This document shows positions 5,579 to 17,879 of a DNA stretch of 64,000 nucleotides, piece after piece. Position numbers and translations under genes: made by a program. The notes under the pieces are model-generated. The model saw only the letters and a list, made by a program, of their open reading frames with translations. It did no database searches and had not been told where the DNA came from. Within the stretch, counting starts at the first letter, position 1, and each line of letters opens with the position of its first letter. This stretch comes from Candidatus Omnitrophota bacterium (GTDB lineage: Bacteria; Omnitrophota; Gorgyraeia; Gygaellales; Profunditerraquicolaceae): assembly GCA_029571225.1 (NCBI GenBank), contig JAKPTF010000097.1:417-64416 (forward strand), in the 5' to 3' direction.

Positions 5579-6274
5579 GTGAGAGTGAAGCGCATTATCT
5601 GCTTCATGGCGCTGGCCGCGCTGCTGCCCGCTGTTGCCCGGGCCTCAGACACGGACCGCGATGCGTATGCCGGCCGCCTCACCGCGCTTTTAAGAGCCGG
5701 ACAAATGGAATCGGGTGACAGGCAGGCCCGGCTGTTGAACGAGTCCGAACGGGCTTTTGTGAATTTCGCGCAGGAATATCCCGATAGCATATACGCTGAT
5801 GATTCCCTGTTCGTATACAGCCTCATCGAGTTTATGGGAGCTGCGTTGGTTCCTCCGCGCGATATGGATACGGCGCGGCAGATGATCGTGATGATGGACA
5901 GGATGGCCGCGCAATATCCCGGAGGCAGGCTTGAACCGCTGACGTATTCAGTGCTGGAGCGTGAACTCGGCCAAGACGGCTTATCCGGGTCTTTTTACAT
6001 GCCGTACGGCTGCGTCGTCTCCTATATGCGGGCAGTCCTGTGCGGTGCTGAGCGTAATTACATGGAAGCGATCCAGAGGTACAACGAATTGAGGCTTTGC
6101 CTGCGGCCTATCGAGGACGAGAGGATCGCCGCGGAGGTCTATATTCCTTTGTTCCGGGCTTACCTCAAGACCGAGCGAAGCGCTTCTGCGCAGGCCATCG
6201 CGGATGAGGTGTCGCAGCTGTTTCCCGGATCGCGGCTCCAGGCAATATTGCGCAGCGAGAGCGGGCGGGAATAA
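5579..6274 (+). CDS. Secreted helical-repeat protein, function unknown
   Basis: GTG start. Signal peptide MRVKRIICFMALAALLPAVARA. The rest is helix-rich. No family recognised. Confidence 0.5.
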   Translation: MRVKRIICFMALAALLPAVARASDTDRDAYAGRLTALLRAGQMESGDRQARLLNESERAFVNFAQEYPDSIYADDSLFVYSLIEFMGAALVPPRDMDTARQMIVMMDRMAAQYPGGRLEPLTYSVLERELGQDGLSGSFYMPYGCVVSYMRAVLCGAERNYMEAIQRYNELRLCLRPIEDERIAAEVYIPLFRAYLKTERSASAQAIADEVSQLFPGSRLQAILRSESGRE

Positions 6275-6308: not shown

Positions 6309-6336
6309 TTGACAAAGAATGGATCAATGGTATACT
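6309..6336 (+). promoter_or_regulatory. Sigma70-type promoter of the cold-shock gene
   Basis: TTGACA (6309-6314), 16-nt spacer, TGG-TATACT extended -10 (6328-6336). Confidence 0.7.
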
Positions 6337-6354
6337 TGATTTCAGTAGTGAGTA

Positions 6355-6409
6355 AAGATTAGAAGTCAGTAGCCGAAAAGCTTATGATGTCTAGCCTTTC
6401 GGCTTTTTT
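6355..6409 (+). promoter_or_regulatory. csp 5' leader element: AAGATTAG box plus terminator-like hairpin
   Basis: AAGATTAG at 6355-6362. Hairpin agccgaaaagc/gcctttcggct (6371-6404, one mismatch, 12-nt loop) followed by TTTTTTGTT. It lies between the promoter and the RBS (GAAGGAGG). Confidence 0.55.
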
Positions 6410-6457
6410 GTTGACGGCTTTATTCACTAAAATTCAAGAAGAAGGAGGTAGTGAGCA

Positions 6458-6658
6458 ATGGTTAAGGGAAAAGTAAAGTGGTTCTCGAACGAAAAAGGCT
6501 ACGGTTTTATTACTCCTGAAAACGGTAATGATGTCTTCGTGCATCATAGCGTGATTCAGGGTGAGGGATATAAGACGCTTGCCGAAGGACAGGAAGTTGA
6601 ACTGGAAATAGTTCAGGGTCCGAAGGGCGAACAGGCCTCGAAAGTCGTAAAGCTCTAA
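6458..6658 (+). CDS. cspA: Cold-shock protein (CspA family)
   Basis: 66 aa. RNP1 KGYGFI and RNP2 VFVHHS motifs with a full CSD layout. Confidence 0.95.
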
Positions 6659-6676: not shown

Positions 6677-6709
6677 GGCCCGGCATAGTAATATGCCGGG
6701 CCTTTTTTT
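6677..6709 (+). terminator. Intrinsic terminator of csp
   Basis: Perfect 11-bp stem ggcccggcata/tatgccgggcc, loop gtaa, then T7. Confidence 0.9.
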
Positions 6710-9902: not shown

Positions 9903-10549
9903 GACAAGCTATTTTCGCCGCGTTTTTCTGTCTGGCAATGCCCGCGGCTGCGTGTTGTCATCAGCCGCGTATCTCGTTCGGGCAGAGGCATCCGTTCCTT
10001 CGCCCGGTGGTTATCCGCCAGCCGGAGGTCTCCAGGGCGTATTACGGTATCCTTGAGGGCGAGCCCGATTATTACAGGATAGACAGCGGTTCACCTTACC
10101 AGCTGTACCTGAATATACTTGTTCCTGACCGCAAAGACTCTGTCCTTGACGTTAAAGTAGACGTCGTGACCGGGAATCTGACGCTTCTTTCGCTCAAAGG
10201 CGCTGGGTTCGGGTGGACGCGTTTTTTCGAGCCCTTTGCCCGTGACCGTTATCTCAAAGGCCCTGAGCTTGACTGGCGGCTCAGGCAGGGGACATATTTT
10301 ATCAAAGTTTCCAACAGGGGGAACAGGGGAAGGTACGTGCTGGCTGTCGGCCGCAGAGAGTCGTTCCCCGTCCATGAGGTCGCCAGAATGGCATGGACAT
10401 TGCCGGTTATTAAAAAGCACTTCTTCGGCAAACCAGGGTATTGCGCGTTTTTTTCGCCTGCGGGCTTGATCGTCCTGGGGTATATGACAGTCATCTGTGG
10501 GATTGTGTGGGGCGCTGTCATTGTGATCCGGAGGTATGCATCCAAATGA
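9899..10549 (+). CDS. Exported protein with a C-terminal membrane anchor, function unknown
   Basis: ATGA overlap with the upstream gene. Signal-like N-terminus MRQAIFAAFFCLAMPAAA and a C-terminal TM helix (GLIVLGYMTVICGIVWGAVIVI). No family recognised. Confidence 0.5.
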   Translation: MRQAIFAAFFCLAMPAAACCHQPRISFGQRHPFLRPVVIRQPEVSRAYYGILEGEPDYYRIDSGSPYQLYLNILVPDRKDSVLDVKVDVVTGNLTLLSLKGAGFGWTRFFEPFARDRYLKGPELDWRLRQGTYFIKVSNRGNRGRYVLAVGRRESFPVHEVARMAWTLPVIKKHFFGKPGYCAFFSPAGLIVLGYMTVICGIVWGAVIVIRRYASK

Positions 10550-11769
10550 AACATTCGTTTCTTGCAATACTGATGTGCATGATGAGCGCATGCTGTTTGG
10601 CCGAGGAAACCCGGTCGCAGCCGAAATACGTTATTCTGGCCTGGAGCGGTTCAGGCATGCATTTTTACTCCGAAGATTTCCAGGATGCGGCGATCCTGCC
10701 CCCGAATAATACGCTTATGTGCCAGGTGATCAAAGTCGGGGAGCCTCCGCAAATCGTGAAAAGCGGCGTCATTGTGGAATACCGCTTCAGGGACAATACT
10801 TTTTCTGCGGGCAAGGACAGCAAGCGCGATAAGACCAATTTCTGGAAGTTCGCGCGGAAATTATTCGGCGTAGATGCTGAGGTGAATAAAGGGCTGACCG
10901 GCAAAGGCCTTTCAGGCCTTATGGACGCGGCCGGGGATTATTTTATTGCCCAGGGCATACCTATTACCGAATACCGTGACGGCTCGGTTGCAGATATAGA
11001 CCGGGGCCTATGGGAACGTTATCCGTTTCAGCTGGCTGCCATCGTGGTTAAGGATGAAAAGACCGGCGTTGAACTGGCCCGAACCAGCGTCGTGGCGCCC
11101 GTATCGAGCGAGGTCAATTGCATGCAATGCCACGGGGATGCTGGGGCTGCGACGAAGAAACACGGCATAAAACCGACAGGAAAATATCAGACGAATATCC
11201 TTTCGCTGCACGATAAGCTGAACCCTGATAAGTATCCGGCGCCTTTGATGCACAGCAGGCCGGTATTATGCGCATCCTGCCATGCATCGAACGCGCTCGG
11301 CGCCATGGGCCGCCAGGGCATACCCAGCCTGTCGAACGCCATACACAGAAGGCATCAGGACCTGCCGGAGATGACCCCCGACACAAACGGCTGTTACAAC
11401 TGCCATCCTGGCCCGCGGACGCAATTCCTGCGGGATACGATGTCGGTGAATTATAAACTCAATTGCACGACGTGCCATGGCACGATGTCAACGGTTGCAA
11501 GGAACCTGGAACCGTGGAAGGTGGAGCCGCGATGCGATAACGGCTCATGCCACGGCCAGGGATACGCCCTTGATAAGCCGTTATTCAACCAGTCAAAGTC
11601 TAAAACCGGGATATATTGCGCCGCCTGTCACGACAGCGCGCATGCGATCGCGCCCAGCAGGCAGGAAAGCGATCAAATCAAATTCAAGGACCTTCAGAGT
11701 AGCCCGGGCACTCTGCGCAGCTGCGCTGTCTGCCACGGCAGGGATGTGCAGAAACCCTTCAAACATTGA
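10546..11769 (+). CDS. Periplasmic multihaem c-type cytochrome
   Basis: ATGA overlap with the upstream gene. Signal peptide MKHSFLAILMCMMSACCLA. Six CxxCH motifs (CMQCH, CASCH, CYNCH, CTTCH, CAACH, CAVCH) plus one CDNGSCH lie between 11119 and 11736. The first ~190 aa carry no haem motif. Confidence 0.8.
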   Translation: MKHSFLAILMCMMSACCLAEETRSQPKYVILAWSGSGMHFYSEDFQDAAILPPNNTLMCQVIKVGEPPQIVKSGVIVEYRFRDNTFSAGKDSKRDKTNFWKFARKLFGVDAEVNKGLTGKGLSGLMDAAGDYFIAQGIPITEYRDGSVADIDRGLWERYPFQLAAIVVKDEKTGVELARTSVVAPVSSEVNCMQCHGDAGAATKKHGIKPTGKYQTNILSLHDKLNPDKYPAPLMHSRPVLCASCHASNALGAMGRQGIPSLSNAIHRRHQDLPEMTPDTNGCYNCHPGPRTQFLRDTMSVNYKLNCTTCHGTMSTVARNLEPWKVEPRCDNGSCHGQGYALDKPLFNQSKSKTGIYCAACHDSAHAIAPSRQESDQIKFKDLQSSPGTLRSCAVCHGRDVQKPFKH

Positions 11770-11785
11770 TAAACACGAATACATG

Positions 11786-11813
11786 TTGACAAAACAGGTA
11801 TCGGTGCTATACT
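11786..11813 (+). promoter_or_regulatory. Sigma70-type promoter of the DEAD-box helicase gene
   Basis: TTGACA (11786-11791), 16-nt spacer, TGC-TATACT extended -10 (11805-11813). Nearly the same core as the csp promoter. Confidence 0.7.
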
Positions 11814-11832
11814 TATACCATCTGCAGAGAAG

Positions 11833-11890
11833 AAGATTAGTAATCGTAAAACCGTAAAGGTTAGATAACTAACTTTTACGGTTTTTGTTT
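11833..11890 (+). promoter_or_regulatory. Helicase 5' leader element: AAGATTAG box plus terminator-like hairpin
   Basis: AAGATTAG at 11833-11840. Hairpin aaaccgtaaagg/cttttacggttt (11849-11884, one G.U, 12-nt loop) running into TTTTTGTTTTTT. The RBS AAGGAG follows at 11904-11909. Confidence 0.55.
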
Positions 11891-11916
11891 TTTCACAGAC
11901 CACAAGGAGAACCCAG

Positions 11917-13215
11917 TTGAATACCGCAGGACATCCGCAGCAAGTAACGCCTCAGCCGTCTAGTTTTTACGGCCTTGGCATCGCGCCCAAGATACTTGAG
12001 ATACTAGAGCGCATAAAATTCAAGGTGCCGACGCCGATTCAGCAGAAAGCCATCCCTCCGGCCATACAGGGCAAAGATGTCATCGGCATCGCGCAGACCG
12101 GCACCGGAAAGACCCATGCGTTTGCCATACCCATGGTGCAGCAACTGGCGCAGAAGCAGGGAGTCGGGCTGGTGCTTGCGCCGACACGGGAACTTGCCAT
12201 CCAGATCGAAGAGGCGTTCCGCGCAATTGCCGCGCCGTTCGGCATGAAGACTGCGTGCCTTATCGGAGGGGCGCCAATGTTCGATCAGACTGTTGCCCTG
12301 CGCAGGGGCCCGCGTATCGTCATTGCTACCCCCGGGCGCCTCATAGACCATATGTCGCAATGGAATTTCATGCCCGAAGAGGTTTGCATGCTGGTCCTCG
12401 ACGAAGCTGACCGGATGCTTGACATGGGGTTTGCCCCGCAGATCGACAAAATCCTGAAATTCATCCCGAAGAACAGGCAGACCATGCTTTTCTCCGCGAC
12501 CATGCCGAAAGAAATCATGGAAATGGCATCGAAGAACATGAAATTGCCGGTGTGCGTTGAGATCGCCCCGCAGGGCACTGCGGCCGAGACGGTCACGCAG
12601 GAGCTGTATATCGTCAAACGGGAAGCCAAAGCCAAATTGCTCGGAAAGATACTGGCACAGTATCACGGGCCTATCCTTTTATTTACTCGGACTAAAATCG
12701 GCGCGCGCAAAGTCACCAGGGCTATACAGGCAATGGGGTATAAGGCGGCTGAGATCCATTCCAACCGGTCGCTGACGCAGCGCCGCGAGGCGCTTGAGGG
12801 ATTCAAACGGGGTTTATACCGCGTGCTTGTCGCAACGGACATCGCCTCCCGGGGCATAGACGTCACGGGCATAGAGCTTGTCATTAATTATGATCTTCCG
12901 GAAGACGCGGGCAATTACGTGCATCGTATCGGCCGCACCGGCCGTGCAGGCCTGAAGGGCCGCGCCATATCCATCGCGACCCCTGACCAGAAAACCGACG
13001 TTAGGGATATTGAAAAATTGATCAGGGCATCCCTGCCTGTGATCAAGCATCCGGATTTCCCTGTCGAGCAGTTCTCCGAGCAAGCGGTACAAAATGCCGG
13101 AGGCCACCGAGTGTCACACAGGCCGGGATCGTTCCGCCATCAGGCAAGCAGAAAGCTTGCAAACAGCCATTCCCATCAGCAGGGGCGTTCAAGACCCCAG
13201 ATATATAAAAAATAA
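11917..13215 (+). CDS. DEAD-box ATP-dependent RNA helicase (RhlE/CshA-like)
   Basis: TTG start 7 nt after AAGGAG. Q-motif (FKVPTPIQQKAIP), AQTGTGKT, PTRELA, DEAD (VLDEADRM), SAT, and HRIGRTGRAG. Basic C-terminal tail. Confidence 0.92.
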   Translation: MNTAGHPQQVTPQPSSFYGLGIAPKILEILERIKFKVPTPIQQKAIPPAIQGKDVIGIAQTGTGKTHAFAIPMVQQLAQKQGVGLVLAPTRELAIQIEEAFRAIAAPFGMKTACLIGGAPMFDQTVALRRGPRIVIATPGRLIDHMSQWNFMPEEVCMLVLDEADRMLDMGFAPQIDKILKFIPKNRQTMLFSATMPKEIMEMASKNMKLPVCVEIAPQGTAAETVTQELYIVKREAKAKLLGKILAQYHGPILLFTRTKIGARKVTRAIQAMGYKAAEIHSNRSLTQRREALEGFKRGLYRVLVATDIASRGIDVTGIELVINYDLPEDAGNYVHRIGRTGRAGLKGRAISIATPDQKTDVRDIEKLIRASLPVIKHPDFPVEQFSEQAVQNAGGHRVSHRPGSFRHQASRKLANSHSHQQGRSRPQIYKK

Positions 13216-15911: not shown

Positions 15912-17879
15912 ATGATAGAGATCAAAAACGTCCATAAGACATATATCATGGGAAGTTCACAGGTGAAGGCCCTTGACGGCGTATCCTTGAAGATAGATCC
16001 GGGGGAATTCATCGCGATCATGGGGCCTTCGGGTTCAGGCAAATCCACGCTTATGCACGTGCTGGGCCTCCTTGACCGGCCTGATTCCGGCGAATACCGC
16101 CTCCGGGGCAGGGAAGTCACTACGTTATCCGATGAGGAGCTTGCGGTTGTGCGCAACAGCCTTATCGGTTTTGTATTCCAGCAATTCCACCTGCTGCCGC
16201 GTATGTCCGCGCTGGAGAACGCTGAATTGCCGCTCATCTACGCAGGGAAAAGGCATTTGCGTCTGCGGGCGGAGGAAGAGCTGGCGGCGGTCGGACTCAG
16301 GGATAGGATACTCCATAAGCCTACCGAATTGTCCGGCGGCCAACAGCAGCGCGTGGCCATCGCACGCGCGCTGGTCAACGACCCTGTTATCCTTTTCGCG
16401 GACGAGCCTACCGGAAATCTCGATTCAAAAAGCAAAGATGAGATCATGGGTATCCTTAAAGGGCTCAATGCCAGAGGCAAGACCGTGGTGGTGGTTACCC
16501 ATGAGCATGAGATTGCCGCGCAGGCGTGCCGCGTCATACATATGCGGGACGGCAGGATCGTTTCCGATGAGCGGACGTCCTTGGAAAAGGCCGTCGGCCG
16601 CTGCGGCCCTGGCGGCGAGCGGCATGTCAACGATGTACTTATCGAGCACCGCAGCGCTTCGGGAAAGATAAAATTCATCGATTACGTGCGCCAGGCAATG
16701 TCCGCGATGGTATCGCACAAGATGCGTTCCCTGCTCTCTATACTGGGGATCCTTATCGGCGTTGCGGCGGTTATCGCGATGCTGGCCCTGGGAAGCGGCG
16801 CAAAAGCGTCTATCGGGCAGCAATTAGCGTCTCTTGGATCTAATCTTCTGTGGGTGCATGCGTCTCACGCTCGGTCGCGGGGGGTTTCGGTCCAGGCGAC
16901 GGAGACACGTTTCACTATTAAGGATGTCGATATGATCGCCGGCCTTGCGTCGGTAAAGAGGGTCTATGGATCCGTATCGAGCAGGGGCCAGGTTGTGTTC
17001 GGGAACCGGAATTCCAACACGCAGATCGAAGGGGTCGGCGTAGATTACGCCCCGATGCGCGCATCCGTCCCTGCTGTAGGCAGGTTCTTCACCGAGCAGG
17101 AGCTCCGCAACAAGGAAAAGGTTGCGGTGCTCGGAACGACCGTTGTCAATAACCTGTTCGGCAGCGCGAATCCGGTAGGGGAAAACATCAAGATAAATCT
17201 GATAAACTTTAAAATTATAGGGATACTGCCCATGAAGGGGGGCGGCGGGTTCCGTGACCAGGATGACGTCGTCATCATCCCGCTGACAACGGCCATGTAC
17301 CGGGTCCTCGGTAAACAGTATATCGATTCGATCTATGCTGAGGCGGTCGATACGGGTTCCGTGCAGGCGGCGCAGGAAGAGATAACCGCTGCAATCATAA
17401 AACAGCACCGGTTGACCGGCAAGAACATCGAGGATGCATTCGACATAAGAAACATGTCGGATATCAAAAGTACGCTGGAATCCACCATGCAGACATTATC
17501 GATGCTTCTGGGCTCCATCGCCGCGATTTCGCTTCTGGTCGGTGGCATCGGCATCATGAACATCATGCTCGTCTCCGTGACCGAGCGCACGCGCGAGATC
17601 GGCCTGCGCAAGGCGATTGGCGCCAGTAACAGGGATATCATGGTGCAGTTCCTGATTGAATCGGTGCTCATGTCCTTAATCGGAGGCATAACCGGCATAG
17701 GTATTGGCGCGGGCGCATCCTGGGTTATGTATCTAATGGCCGGGTGGGCAGTCAGAGTGTCTGCCTCATCGGTTTTCCTGGCGACAACATTTTCTCTCGT
17801 CGTCGGCGTCGTTTTCGGTTTGTGGCCGGCGCAAAAAGCCTCACAGCTCAATCCAATCGAAGCCCTCAGGTATGAATGA
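15912..17879 (+). CDS. macB: MacB-type ABC transporter (fused ATPase + FtsX permease)
   Basis: GPSGSGKST, LSGGQQQRVAIARAL and FADEPTGNLD are followed by a 4-TM FtsX-type permease with a large periplasmic loop. 655 aa. Confidence 0.9.
   Translation: MIEIKNVHKTYIMGSSQVKALDGVSLKIDPGEFIAIMGPSGSGKSTLMHVLGLLDRPDSGEYRLRGREVTTLSDEELAVVRNSLIGFVFQQFHLLPRMSALENAELPLIYAGKRHLRLRAEEELAAVGLRDRILHKPTELSGGQQQRVAIARALVNDPVILFADEPTGNLDSKSKDEIMGILKGLNARGKTVVVVTHEHEIAAQACRVIHMRDGRIVSDERTSLEKAVGRCGPGGERHVNDVLIEHRSASGKIKFIDYVRQAMSAMVSHKMRSLLSILGILIGVAAVIAMLALGSGAKASIGQQLASLGSNLLWVHASHARSRGVSVQATETRFTIKDVDMIAGLASVKRVYGSVSSRGQVVFGNRNSNTQIEGVGVDYAPMRASVPAVGRFFTEQELRNKEKVAVLGTTVVNNLFGSANPVGENIKINLINFKIIGILPMKGGGGFRDQDDVVIIPLTTAMYRVLGKQYIDSIYAEAVDTGSVQAAQEEITAAIIKQHRLTGKNIEDAFDIRNMSDIKSTLESTMQTLSMLLGSIAAISLLVGGIGIMNIMLVSVTERTREIGLRKAIGASNRDIMVQFLIESVLMSLIGGITGIGIGAGASWVMYLMAGWAVRVSASSVFLATTFSLVVGVVFGLWPAQKASQLNPIEALRYE

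Follow-up and report, generated by a model that had tools for sequence, protein, structure and literature searches.

The stretch analyzed here, positions 417 to 64,416 of the Candidatus Omnitrophota contig JAKPTF010000097.1 (64,000 nucleotides [nt]; below, the window), carries a csp gene, which encodes a cold-shock protein, as well as a gene for a DEAD-box RNA helicase, each preceded by a leader of the same design (Table 1). In both leaders, an extended −10 promoter is followed by an 8-nt box (Box 1, AAGATTAG), by a hairpin that runs into a U-run, and only then by the ribosome-binding site (RBS) and the start codon. The initial annotation had described the csp leader and its recurrence in front of the helicase gene, at 11786-11916, and had suggested that the hairpin might be a temperature- or Csp-dependent attenuator that gives autoregulation. 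Its account of the sequence was borne out. The csp promoter (TTGACA, a 16-nt spacer, TATACT, and the TG), Box 1, whose first base lies 19 nt past the −10 element, the hairpin with its 12-nt loop, and the U-run, RBS GGAGG, and ATG all lie where it had placed them and in the order that it gave, the 11-nt hairpin arms consisting of 10 pairs and one A·C mismatch, and the order of elements in the helicase leader is the same. What it had missed is the wide distribution of the leader in the Omnitrophota, the pairing role of Box 1, and a switch in the csp leader that acts against the RBS (anti-RBS). The leader probably turns cold-shock genes on and off.

Box 1 and the following spacer find their complement in two stretches of the hairpin, the invariant CUAA in the 3′ part of its loop and the CCUU that tops its 3′ arm. 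An antiterminator fold (AT) can therefore be drawn beside the terminator-like hairpin (T); in the csp leader, AAAG (6354-6357) pairs with CUUU (6396-6399), UUAGA (6359-6363) with UCUAG (6390-6394), and GUCA (6365-6368) with UGAU (6385-6388). AT is an interrupted, A+U-rich helix that holds the 5′ arm of T inside its apical loop, so that AT and T are mutually exclusive. Folding the leader for alternative structures, a check that had been proposed with the initial annotation, recovered this conserved antiterminator, and RNAalifold, given 14 csp leaders aligned without structural input, predicted AT and not T. Because folding reveals a conserved antiterminator alternative, attenuation, as the initial annotation had suggested, is the best-supported reading, and we give somewhat better than even chances to the view that the leader is a ~60-nt conditional transcription attenuator at the 5′ end of Omnitrophota cold-shock RNA-chaperone mRNAs. 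Two features of an attenuator are present: a G+C-based stem and a U-run stand between promoter and RBS, and a conserved helix sequesters part of the 3′ arm.

Generic duplex energies between spacer and loop, compared for own and cross pairs, did not differ significantly (p = 0.06), and position-specific pair counts were therefore used, taken from a model-based alignment of 99 distinct sequences and compared with 500 shuffles. In the T helix, 91.9% of the cells were paired, and none of the 500 shuffles, which gave 0.174, reached its covariation score of 0.233; one of its pairs occurred as UA (30), CG (27), UG (18), and GC (4), and its closing pair as GU (42), GC (41), and AU (15). The AT helix was 86.4% paired overall (99% in the core and 64 to 73% in the extension), with a score of 0.125 against 0.104 that was reached by 2 of the 500 shuffles. 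Double changes were found at all five pairs of the extension, and slid controls scored 0.073 or less. T is backed by covariation; AT is backed by complementarity, modest covariation, and a few compensatory variants. At locus L112, the 3′ arm has changed from CCUUU to GCUCU and both of its partners have followed, Box 1 from AAG to GGG and the 5′ arm from AAAGG to AGAGG. Where the spacer has gone from AUCUU to AACUU, it is the loop that has changed to suit, from AAGAC to AAGUU, and not Box 1. Among leaders that, like L112, lay outside the pattern selection described below, the variants CTAGCC, CTGACC, and GAGATTAG gave G·U wobbles that keep AT paired, and the position opposite the conserved AT mismatch varied, from A to T or by deletion. 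We also rejected, as the predominant form, a closed T whose loop is bound by Box 1 in a pseudoknot: the whole loop is taken up by the extension helix, which places the 5′ arm in a 12- to 13-nt apical loop, a geometry that would make the pseudoknot sterically incompatible with the T stem of 10 base pairs (bp).

Box 1 alone is not a significant signal in the window, where AAGATTAG occurs 3 times when 1.44 occurrences would be expected; the copy at 16840, on the minus strand, sits within a gene. It is the shared architecture, rather than the 8-mer itself, that is significant. A covariance model, whose training set included both window leaders, found exactly two copies of the module in the 64 kb, at 61 and 52 bits. 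Two other promoters of the form TGnTATACTT (36091 and 36555) were examined and have nothing in common with the leader. Searches of Rfam, with the whole 64-kb window at the gathering threshold and with permissive scans of both leaders, returned sub-threshold noise only, and the motif is described neither in Rfam nor in the literature that we found.

In a species-level genome collection, relatives of the helicase come nearly all from Candidatus Omnitrophota. We recovered 23 relative loci by helicase protein homology alone and found 13 copies of the module at 11 of them, upstream of the helicase gene or of a nearby csp gene. Box 1 read AAGATTAG in 11 of these 13 leaders and GAGATTAG and AAGTTTAG in one each, and the 3′ box read CTAACCTTT in 9 and CTAGCCTTT in 4. 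All 13 had a −10 element and a run of at least five T's no more than 2 nt from the stem, and their consensus was a stem RCCGnAAAGG and a loop ending in CTAA or CTAG, followed by CCTTTnCGGY. An exact-pattern scan of metagenomes placed the module on at least 120 contigs, nearly always ahead of csp, of a small Cys/His open reading frame (ORF) plus the helicase gene, or of the helicase gene. Among the matches listed, one of these arrangements, with csp in two paralogue types, began no more than 450 nt downstream in 132 of 146 instances, and the remaining 14 were mostly cut by contig ends. Of 136 leaders, 132 had a sigma-70-type promoter whose end lay 0 to 28 nt upstream of Box 1 (6 to 28 nt in all but one), with Box 1 starting 6 nt past the −10 element, at about +1, in 22 instances; the spacing from Box 1 to the 3′-box half-site ranged from 23 to 39 nt. 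The comparison with related genomes, of the kind that the initial annotation had called for, supports Box 1 and the hairpin as a conserved leader module common to csp and helicase. Strain-level csp loci (L001 to L007) were discarded as comparative evidence, since seven of eight aligned leaders were identical and one had a single-base difference, which made them uninformative. In contigs of an anaerobic-digester genome bin, the csp protein is identical and the leaders are essentially so.

Mean folding energies were −14.7 kcal/mol for T at 37°C and, for AT, −5.8 kcal/mol at 37°C and −13.8 kcal/mol at 10°C. On the nascent prefix, before the lower 3′ arm emerges, the fold of lowest energy was AT for 58% of instances at 37°C and for 72% at 10°C (94% for the csp type), and with the complete 3′ arm present, T won in 99%. 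AT is thus predicted to fold first on the nascent RNA and T to be the thermodynamic sink. A promoter scan of the window found no promoter-like site between T and the start codon; the downstream genes should therefore be expressible only by read-through.

We propose that transcription would start at the strong extended −10 promoter, with Box 1 (AAGAUUAG) within the first 10 to 20 nt, and would then enter the 10- to 17-bp hairpin T, whose G+C-rich base and U-run upstream of the sole RBS have the anatomy of an intrinsic terminator. AT would form once CUAACCUU exits the polymerase, ahead of the remaining 3′ arm, T would be far more stable than AT when complete, and the outcome would be set by the speed at which AT gives way to T during the polymerase's time on the U-run. 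Warmth, or an ample supply of RNA chaperones (Csp and the helicase), would make this resolution fast, and transcription would stop; cold, or a shortage of chaperone capacity, would let AT persist, and the genes would be transcribed. Candidate inputs, not exclusive of each other, are a cold-slowed resolution of AT and the action of Csp or helicase in resolving AT or melting T. We infer both the direction of the switch and its signal. With a good deal less confidence than we have in attenuation as such, we suggest that the leader may be a natural intrinsic terminator that senses cold directly, or Csp and helicase capacity, by means of a weak, mismatch-tuned, A+U-rich AT that is nucleated on the T loop and outlasts the polymerase's stay on the U-run only at low temperature or only where that capacity falls short. 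If so, the leader would gauge cellular RNA refolding and switch on the RNA-chaperone regulon to match. From a non-exhaustive survey, we know of temperature-responsive terminators otherwise as synthetic designs only.

Around this module, the csp leader, which is ~115 nt long, carries a second switch. Its outer stem, P1, formed by the strands S1 and S2, covaries at two pairs (UA/CG/UG and AU/GC/GU). S1 has a near copy, here called S1′, between the Shine-Dalgarno sequence (SD) and the AUG, and this copy has 6423-6429, within S2, as its alternative partner. The locked helix S2:S1′ is 89.3% paired, with double changes at two pairs and a score of 0.232 against 0.170. Together with a pairing of the U-run region to codons 2 to 6 (6461-6474), it makes up the locked form, the minimum-energy fold of 6343-6480, which in several relatives is a ~24-bp hairpin. 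The locked helix was rejected as a universal feature, being strong in a subset of csp leaders only and weak in some relatives. At 37°C and at 10°C alike, the locked form is what equilibrium folding of the csp leader yields; known csp thermoswitches are kinetic or protein assisted. In these predicted structures, the csp leader, and the csp leader only, has the two mutually exclusive folds that characterize csp thermoswitches, and the Box 1/T/AT module sits within a switch in which S2 would leave the RBS free when paired with the 5′ end and lock it when paired with the SD-AUG spacer. Because the leaders of the helicase and small-ORF operons lack the anti-RBS layer, Box 1/T/AT is a shared, separable unit; the RBS of the helicase gene in the window is unpaired in every predicted fold.

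Several points weigh against the attenuator reading. We infer termination at the U-run from anatomy alone. Covariation in the AT core is slight because the core is almost invariant, an invariance that the metagenome pattern, which fixed both boxes, in part imposed; support for the extension is modest, and one subfamily (the GCCGCCAAGG type) lacks the extension. The strong sequence conservation of both boxes suggests a constraint beyond pairing, such as a protein partner. In the csp leader of the window, AT (−15.6) and T (−14.1) are nearly isoenergetic, so that this copy may be leaky or even read through constitutively. The AT-to-T barriers estimated along the direct path with findpath, ~9 kcal/mol at 37°C rising to 13 to 15 kcal/mol at 15 to 5°C, span the seconds timescale of a paused polymerase, and they are order-of-magnitude figures, computed with no pseudoknotted paths, no polymerase, and an arbitrary prefactor. 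A rival small hairpin between Box 1 and the spacer (AAGAUU:AAUCUU), available to most leaders, is 81% paired and would form first; as it could oppose AT, the sign of the temperature response is not derivable from folding alone. No covariation is possible in this hairpin because Box 1 is invariant, and it was rejected as the cause of spacer conservation, since the change from AUCUU to AACUU is compensated in the loop and not in Box 1. A helicase leader from a close relative (L038:1712-1774, minus strand) keeps T and the U-run while its Box 1 is degenerate (GAGATGCTAAT); if the antiterminator model is true, this leader should terminate constitutively.

Conservation of the boxes as sequence, beyond their pairing partners, is also what would be expected if attenuation depended on a protein, with a Csp or another RNA-binding protein, for example the helicase or the small Cys/His protein, reading the U-run, Box 1, or the CUAACCUUU box and shifting the balance of T and AT, so that the genes would be autoregulated and temperature would act indirectly. 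The U-run, as in UUUUUUGUU, resembles the UUUGUUU motif bound by Staphylococcus aureus CspA (PMC8034633), Escherichia coli Csp proteins bind transcripts and lower intrinsic termination (PMC9765468), and the regulon consists of RNA chaperones. Cold-shock domains, however, are low in specificity and favor U-rich RNA, whereas Box 1 is purine rich, and the leader has been kept in the lineage of the window despite the absence of the small ORF there. We regard such protein dependence as possible without thinking it probable, and it is compatible with the attenuator reading rather than exclusive of it. We find it unlikely that the hairpin is unused as a terminator and that T and AT instead control translation or stability as alternative shapes of the 5′ end of the mRNA, in the manner of the E. 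coli, Listeria, and S. aureus csp thermoswitches. The leaders of the helicase and small-ORF operons have Box 1, T, and AT without the anti-RBS module, the RBS of the window helicase is unpaired in the predicted folds, and a G+C-based stem of 10 to 17 bp with 5 to 8 U's, kept in all 13 of the helicase-derived leaders, is the canonical signal of an intrinsic terminator. This argues against a purely posttranscriptional role even though csp leaders do hold a covarying open/locked anti-RBS switch, the U-run region pairs with codons 2 to 6 in the locked form of many of them, and the experimentally characterized csp thermoswitches all act on translation (PMC8034633, PMC8079631).

The remaining explanations place the function of the element outside the leader RNA or upstream of it. 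Between promoter and start codon in this stress regulon, AAGATTAG and CTAACCTT form an imperfect inverted repeat with half-sites that are both conserved as sequence, and this repeat might be a DNA operator for a dimeric cold-shock repressor, comparable to CIRCE/HrcA in heat shock. The variable spacing of the half-sites (23 to 39 nt), their conserved asymmetry (at the same position, A in one and G in the other), substitutions of the G·U-tolerant, RNA type, and covariation as RNA helices of the sequence between them make this very improbable. We think equally little of the idea that promoter, Box 1 as a 5′ seed, and terminator make up a ~60-nt trans-acting small RNA (sRNA), present in several copies per genome and aimed at distant genes with CUAAUCUU sites, with read-through incidental. 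A conserved 5′-terminal sequence and an intrinsic terminator are indeed typical of sRNAs with the seed at the 5′ end, and Box 1 at about +1 in 22 instances would suit such a role, but the element always lies directly upstream of the same few genes in the same orientation, ~20 to 60 nt from the RBS in most leaders, the window scan shows no other promoter between element and RBS, and Box 1 has a conserved partner inside its own leader. Least credible of all is that the hairpin merely terminates the upstream gene (5579-6274 before csp and 10441-11769 before its twin). Both genes run on the same strand and lack another terminator, yet a conserved promoter, found in 132 of 136 leaders, and Box 1 stand between the upstream stop codon and the hairpin, and the module travels with the csp and helicase genes.

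The genes behind the module point to an Omnitrophota cold-shock regulon, which appears to comprise csp paralogues, the small Cys/His protein, the helicase, and sometimes FabK-like and radical-SAM proteins. The small ORF (~50 amino acids [aa]; consensus MKKVKTSxKGRKCKFPHCKHILSIYNHExYCHVHL) lies between leader and helicase in most Omnitrophota relatives (L012:2181-2330, L011:7834-7986, L018:579-731, and ~100 other loci) and is missing in the window as well as in L008, L038, and L094. It matches no Pfam family, with a weak zf-TAZ match only, and has just 16 homologues, of which those annotated are from Omnitrophota/Omnitrophica, one being labeled merely "bacterium"; its product may bind zinc and serve as partner to either the helicase or the leader. 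In a few places, the leader stands ahead of a nitronate-monooxygenase/FabK-like gene (L091:6531-6870, L145, L053:~2849, and L127:~3299) or of a B12-binding radical-SAM gene, a small CxxC ORF, or both (L116:1447-2872, L139:900-3329, and L103:~1885). In these rare cases, the small Cys/His ORF and, where the contig reaches, the helicase gene come next, which suggests a wider cold-shock operon. A third csp type (L058 and L067; start GTGAGTACA) lacks the Box 1/terminator module and has another conserved leader (…TCTCACGTCTCTCAGG…CGAGAGGCAGATT…), so that not all csp paralogues belong to the regulon.

Other observations concern the surroundings of the leaders. In the window, the csp stop codon is followed at 6677-6709 by a strong intrinsic terminator (an 11-bp stem with 8 G-C pairs and then T7), which makes csp a monocistronic unit, apart from the downstream TrkH/TrkA genes. 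The ORF just upstream of the helicase leader (10441-11769) has at least six CxxCH motifs (CMQCH, CASCH, CYNCH, CTTCH, CAACH, and CAVCH) and looks like a multiheme c-type cytochrome. The closest relatives of the window (L008:7875-8000 and L094, minus strand, ~2527-2740) carry, between the leader terminator and the helicase start, two to three tandem ~50-nt units (GGTGGCGCAATACC...GCGCCAGCC...GGAGGGCACAT) that do not occur in the window.

Table 1. Elements of the csp and helicase leaders and the genes that they precede, in window coordinates
Feature	Position	Strand	Evidence
csp promoter: −35 TTGACA 6309-6314, TG 6328-6329, −10 TATACT 6331-6336	6309-6336	+	11/12 consensus matches with TG
S1 UAGUGAGUAAAG, 5′ strand of outer stem P1; partner S2 (6418-6429)	6346-6357	+	Covariation
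Box 1 AAGATTAG, 5′ strand of antiterminator core; partner 6390-6398	6355-6362	+	In 137/146 instances
Spacer segment GUCA, antiterminator extension; partner UGAU 6385-6388	6365-6368	+	Both-side changes across homologues
Terminator-like hairpin T: arms 6371-6381 and 6394-6404, loop 6382-6393	6371-6404	+	Pairing, covariation
Conserved 3′ box CTAGCCTTT of csp hairpin T	6391-6399	+	
U-run TTTTTTGTT adjoining hairpin; putative termination site; resembles S. aureus Csp-binding UUUGUUU	6404-6412	+	
S2 CUUUAUUCACUA, anti-RBS strand; partner S1 (open form) or S1′ (locked form)	6418-6429	+	
csp ribosome-binding region: SD GGAGG 6444-6448, S1′ UAGUGAG 6449-6455, AUG 6458-6460	6444-6460	+	
csp gene, 66 aa, CSD domain	6458-6658	+	PF00313, E = 1.1e-27
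Helicase promoter: TTGACA 11786-11791, 16-nt spacer, TG 11805-11806, TATACT 11808-11813	11786-11813	+	
Box 1 AAGATTAG of helicase leader; nascent RNA pairs 11832-11845 with 11864-11876	11833-11840	+	
Helicase terminator hairpin, 17 bp (11848-11864 with 11869-11885), loop AUAA, then U-run to 11893	11848-11893	+	z = −3.65; −21.3 kcal/mol
3′ box CTAACTTTT of helicase hairpin	11869-11877	+	
DEAD-box RNA helicase gene, 432 aa, TTG start, SD AAGGAG 11904-11909	11917-13215	+	PF00270, E = 2.5e-50; PF00271, E = 1.7e-27

Cold-shock regulation is understood in a few cultured bacteria, mainly in terms of translation-level RNA thermoswitches and mRNA stability. An uncultured phylum seems to run its Csp and DEAD-box helicase genes by one common 60-nt module of terminator and antiterminator without a ligand pocket, and the leader is an RNA family missing from Rfam. 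If it is true that the switch answers to temperature or chaperone capacity, it would represent natural thermosensing at transcription termination and would offer a compact part for synthetic biology.

The closest parallels lie in the csp leaders of cultured bacteria. E. coli has a cold box, the 11-nt UGACGUACAGA near the 5′ end of the leader, and a short 5′-proximal box is common there to csp genes and the DEAD-box helicase gene csdA/deaD. The Omnitrophota layout, with a 5′-proximal box shared by csp and DEAD-box helicase leaders, resembles this by analogy and not by homology: the cold box has no match with up to two mismatches in 6309-6457 or 11786-11916, and the match to the cspA thermoregulator family of Rfam (RF01766), at 19.4 bits (E = 0.0056) against a gathering score of 78, runs from the leader into the coding sequence. 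As in the E. coli cspA 5′ untranslated region, a long leader sits on a cold-shock mRNA and alternative folds decide expression, and we count as a further likeness that CspA feeds back on its own leader. Unlike the Omnitrophota leader, that of E. coli cspA has no intrinsic terminator with a U-run, and its thermosensor acts on translation and stability. The csp leader also resembles the cspB and cspC thermoswitches found in S. aureus and that of Listeria cspA, in which an anti-RBS segment has the 5′ region (open) or the RBS (locked) as its partner (PMC8034633, PMC8079631); a U-rich stretch (UUUUUUGUU) within the open-form hairpin and a leader of ~115 nt are shared as well. There is no sequence similarity to these switches, however; the Omnitrophota csp leader adds the Box 1/T/AT module, and that module also stands alone before helicase operons that lack an anti-RBS switch.

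Links between Csp proteins and termination have been described. Csp proteins weaken intrinsic terminators and so raise read-through (PMC9765468), and the 5′ regions of E. coli cspB and cspG undergo premature, Rho-dependent termination (PMC7815308). Whereas in E. coli the events in csp leaders are Rho dependent and the targets of Csp are terminators of other genes, the Omnitrophota have a dedicated intrinsic terminator with its own antiterminator inside the csp and helicase leaders themselves. With trp and pyr leaders, T-boxes, and transcriptional riboswitches the leader shares a promoter-proximal intrinsic terminator, the 3′ arm of which is open to capture by a complementary segment upstream, and a decision made cotranscriptionally. 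Unlike these classical attenuators, it has only ~45 nt from Box 1 to the hairpin base, too little for an aptamer; no Rfam aptamer matched the leaders, the whole element being only ~60 nt, and no leader peptide was noticed, without a systematic search. The input is likely physical (temperature) or a general chaperone activity, rather than a metabolite, a tRNA, or a ribosome. Csp leaders with alternative folds and attenuators built of terminator and antiterminator are already known; what is new is this motif and its sharing by csp and helicase operons across a candidate phylum, and new too is that cold-shock genes appear to employ an intrinsic terminator whose antiterminator is ligand free.

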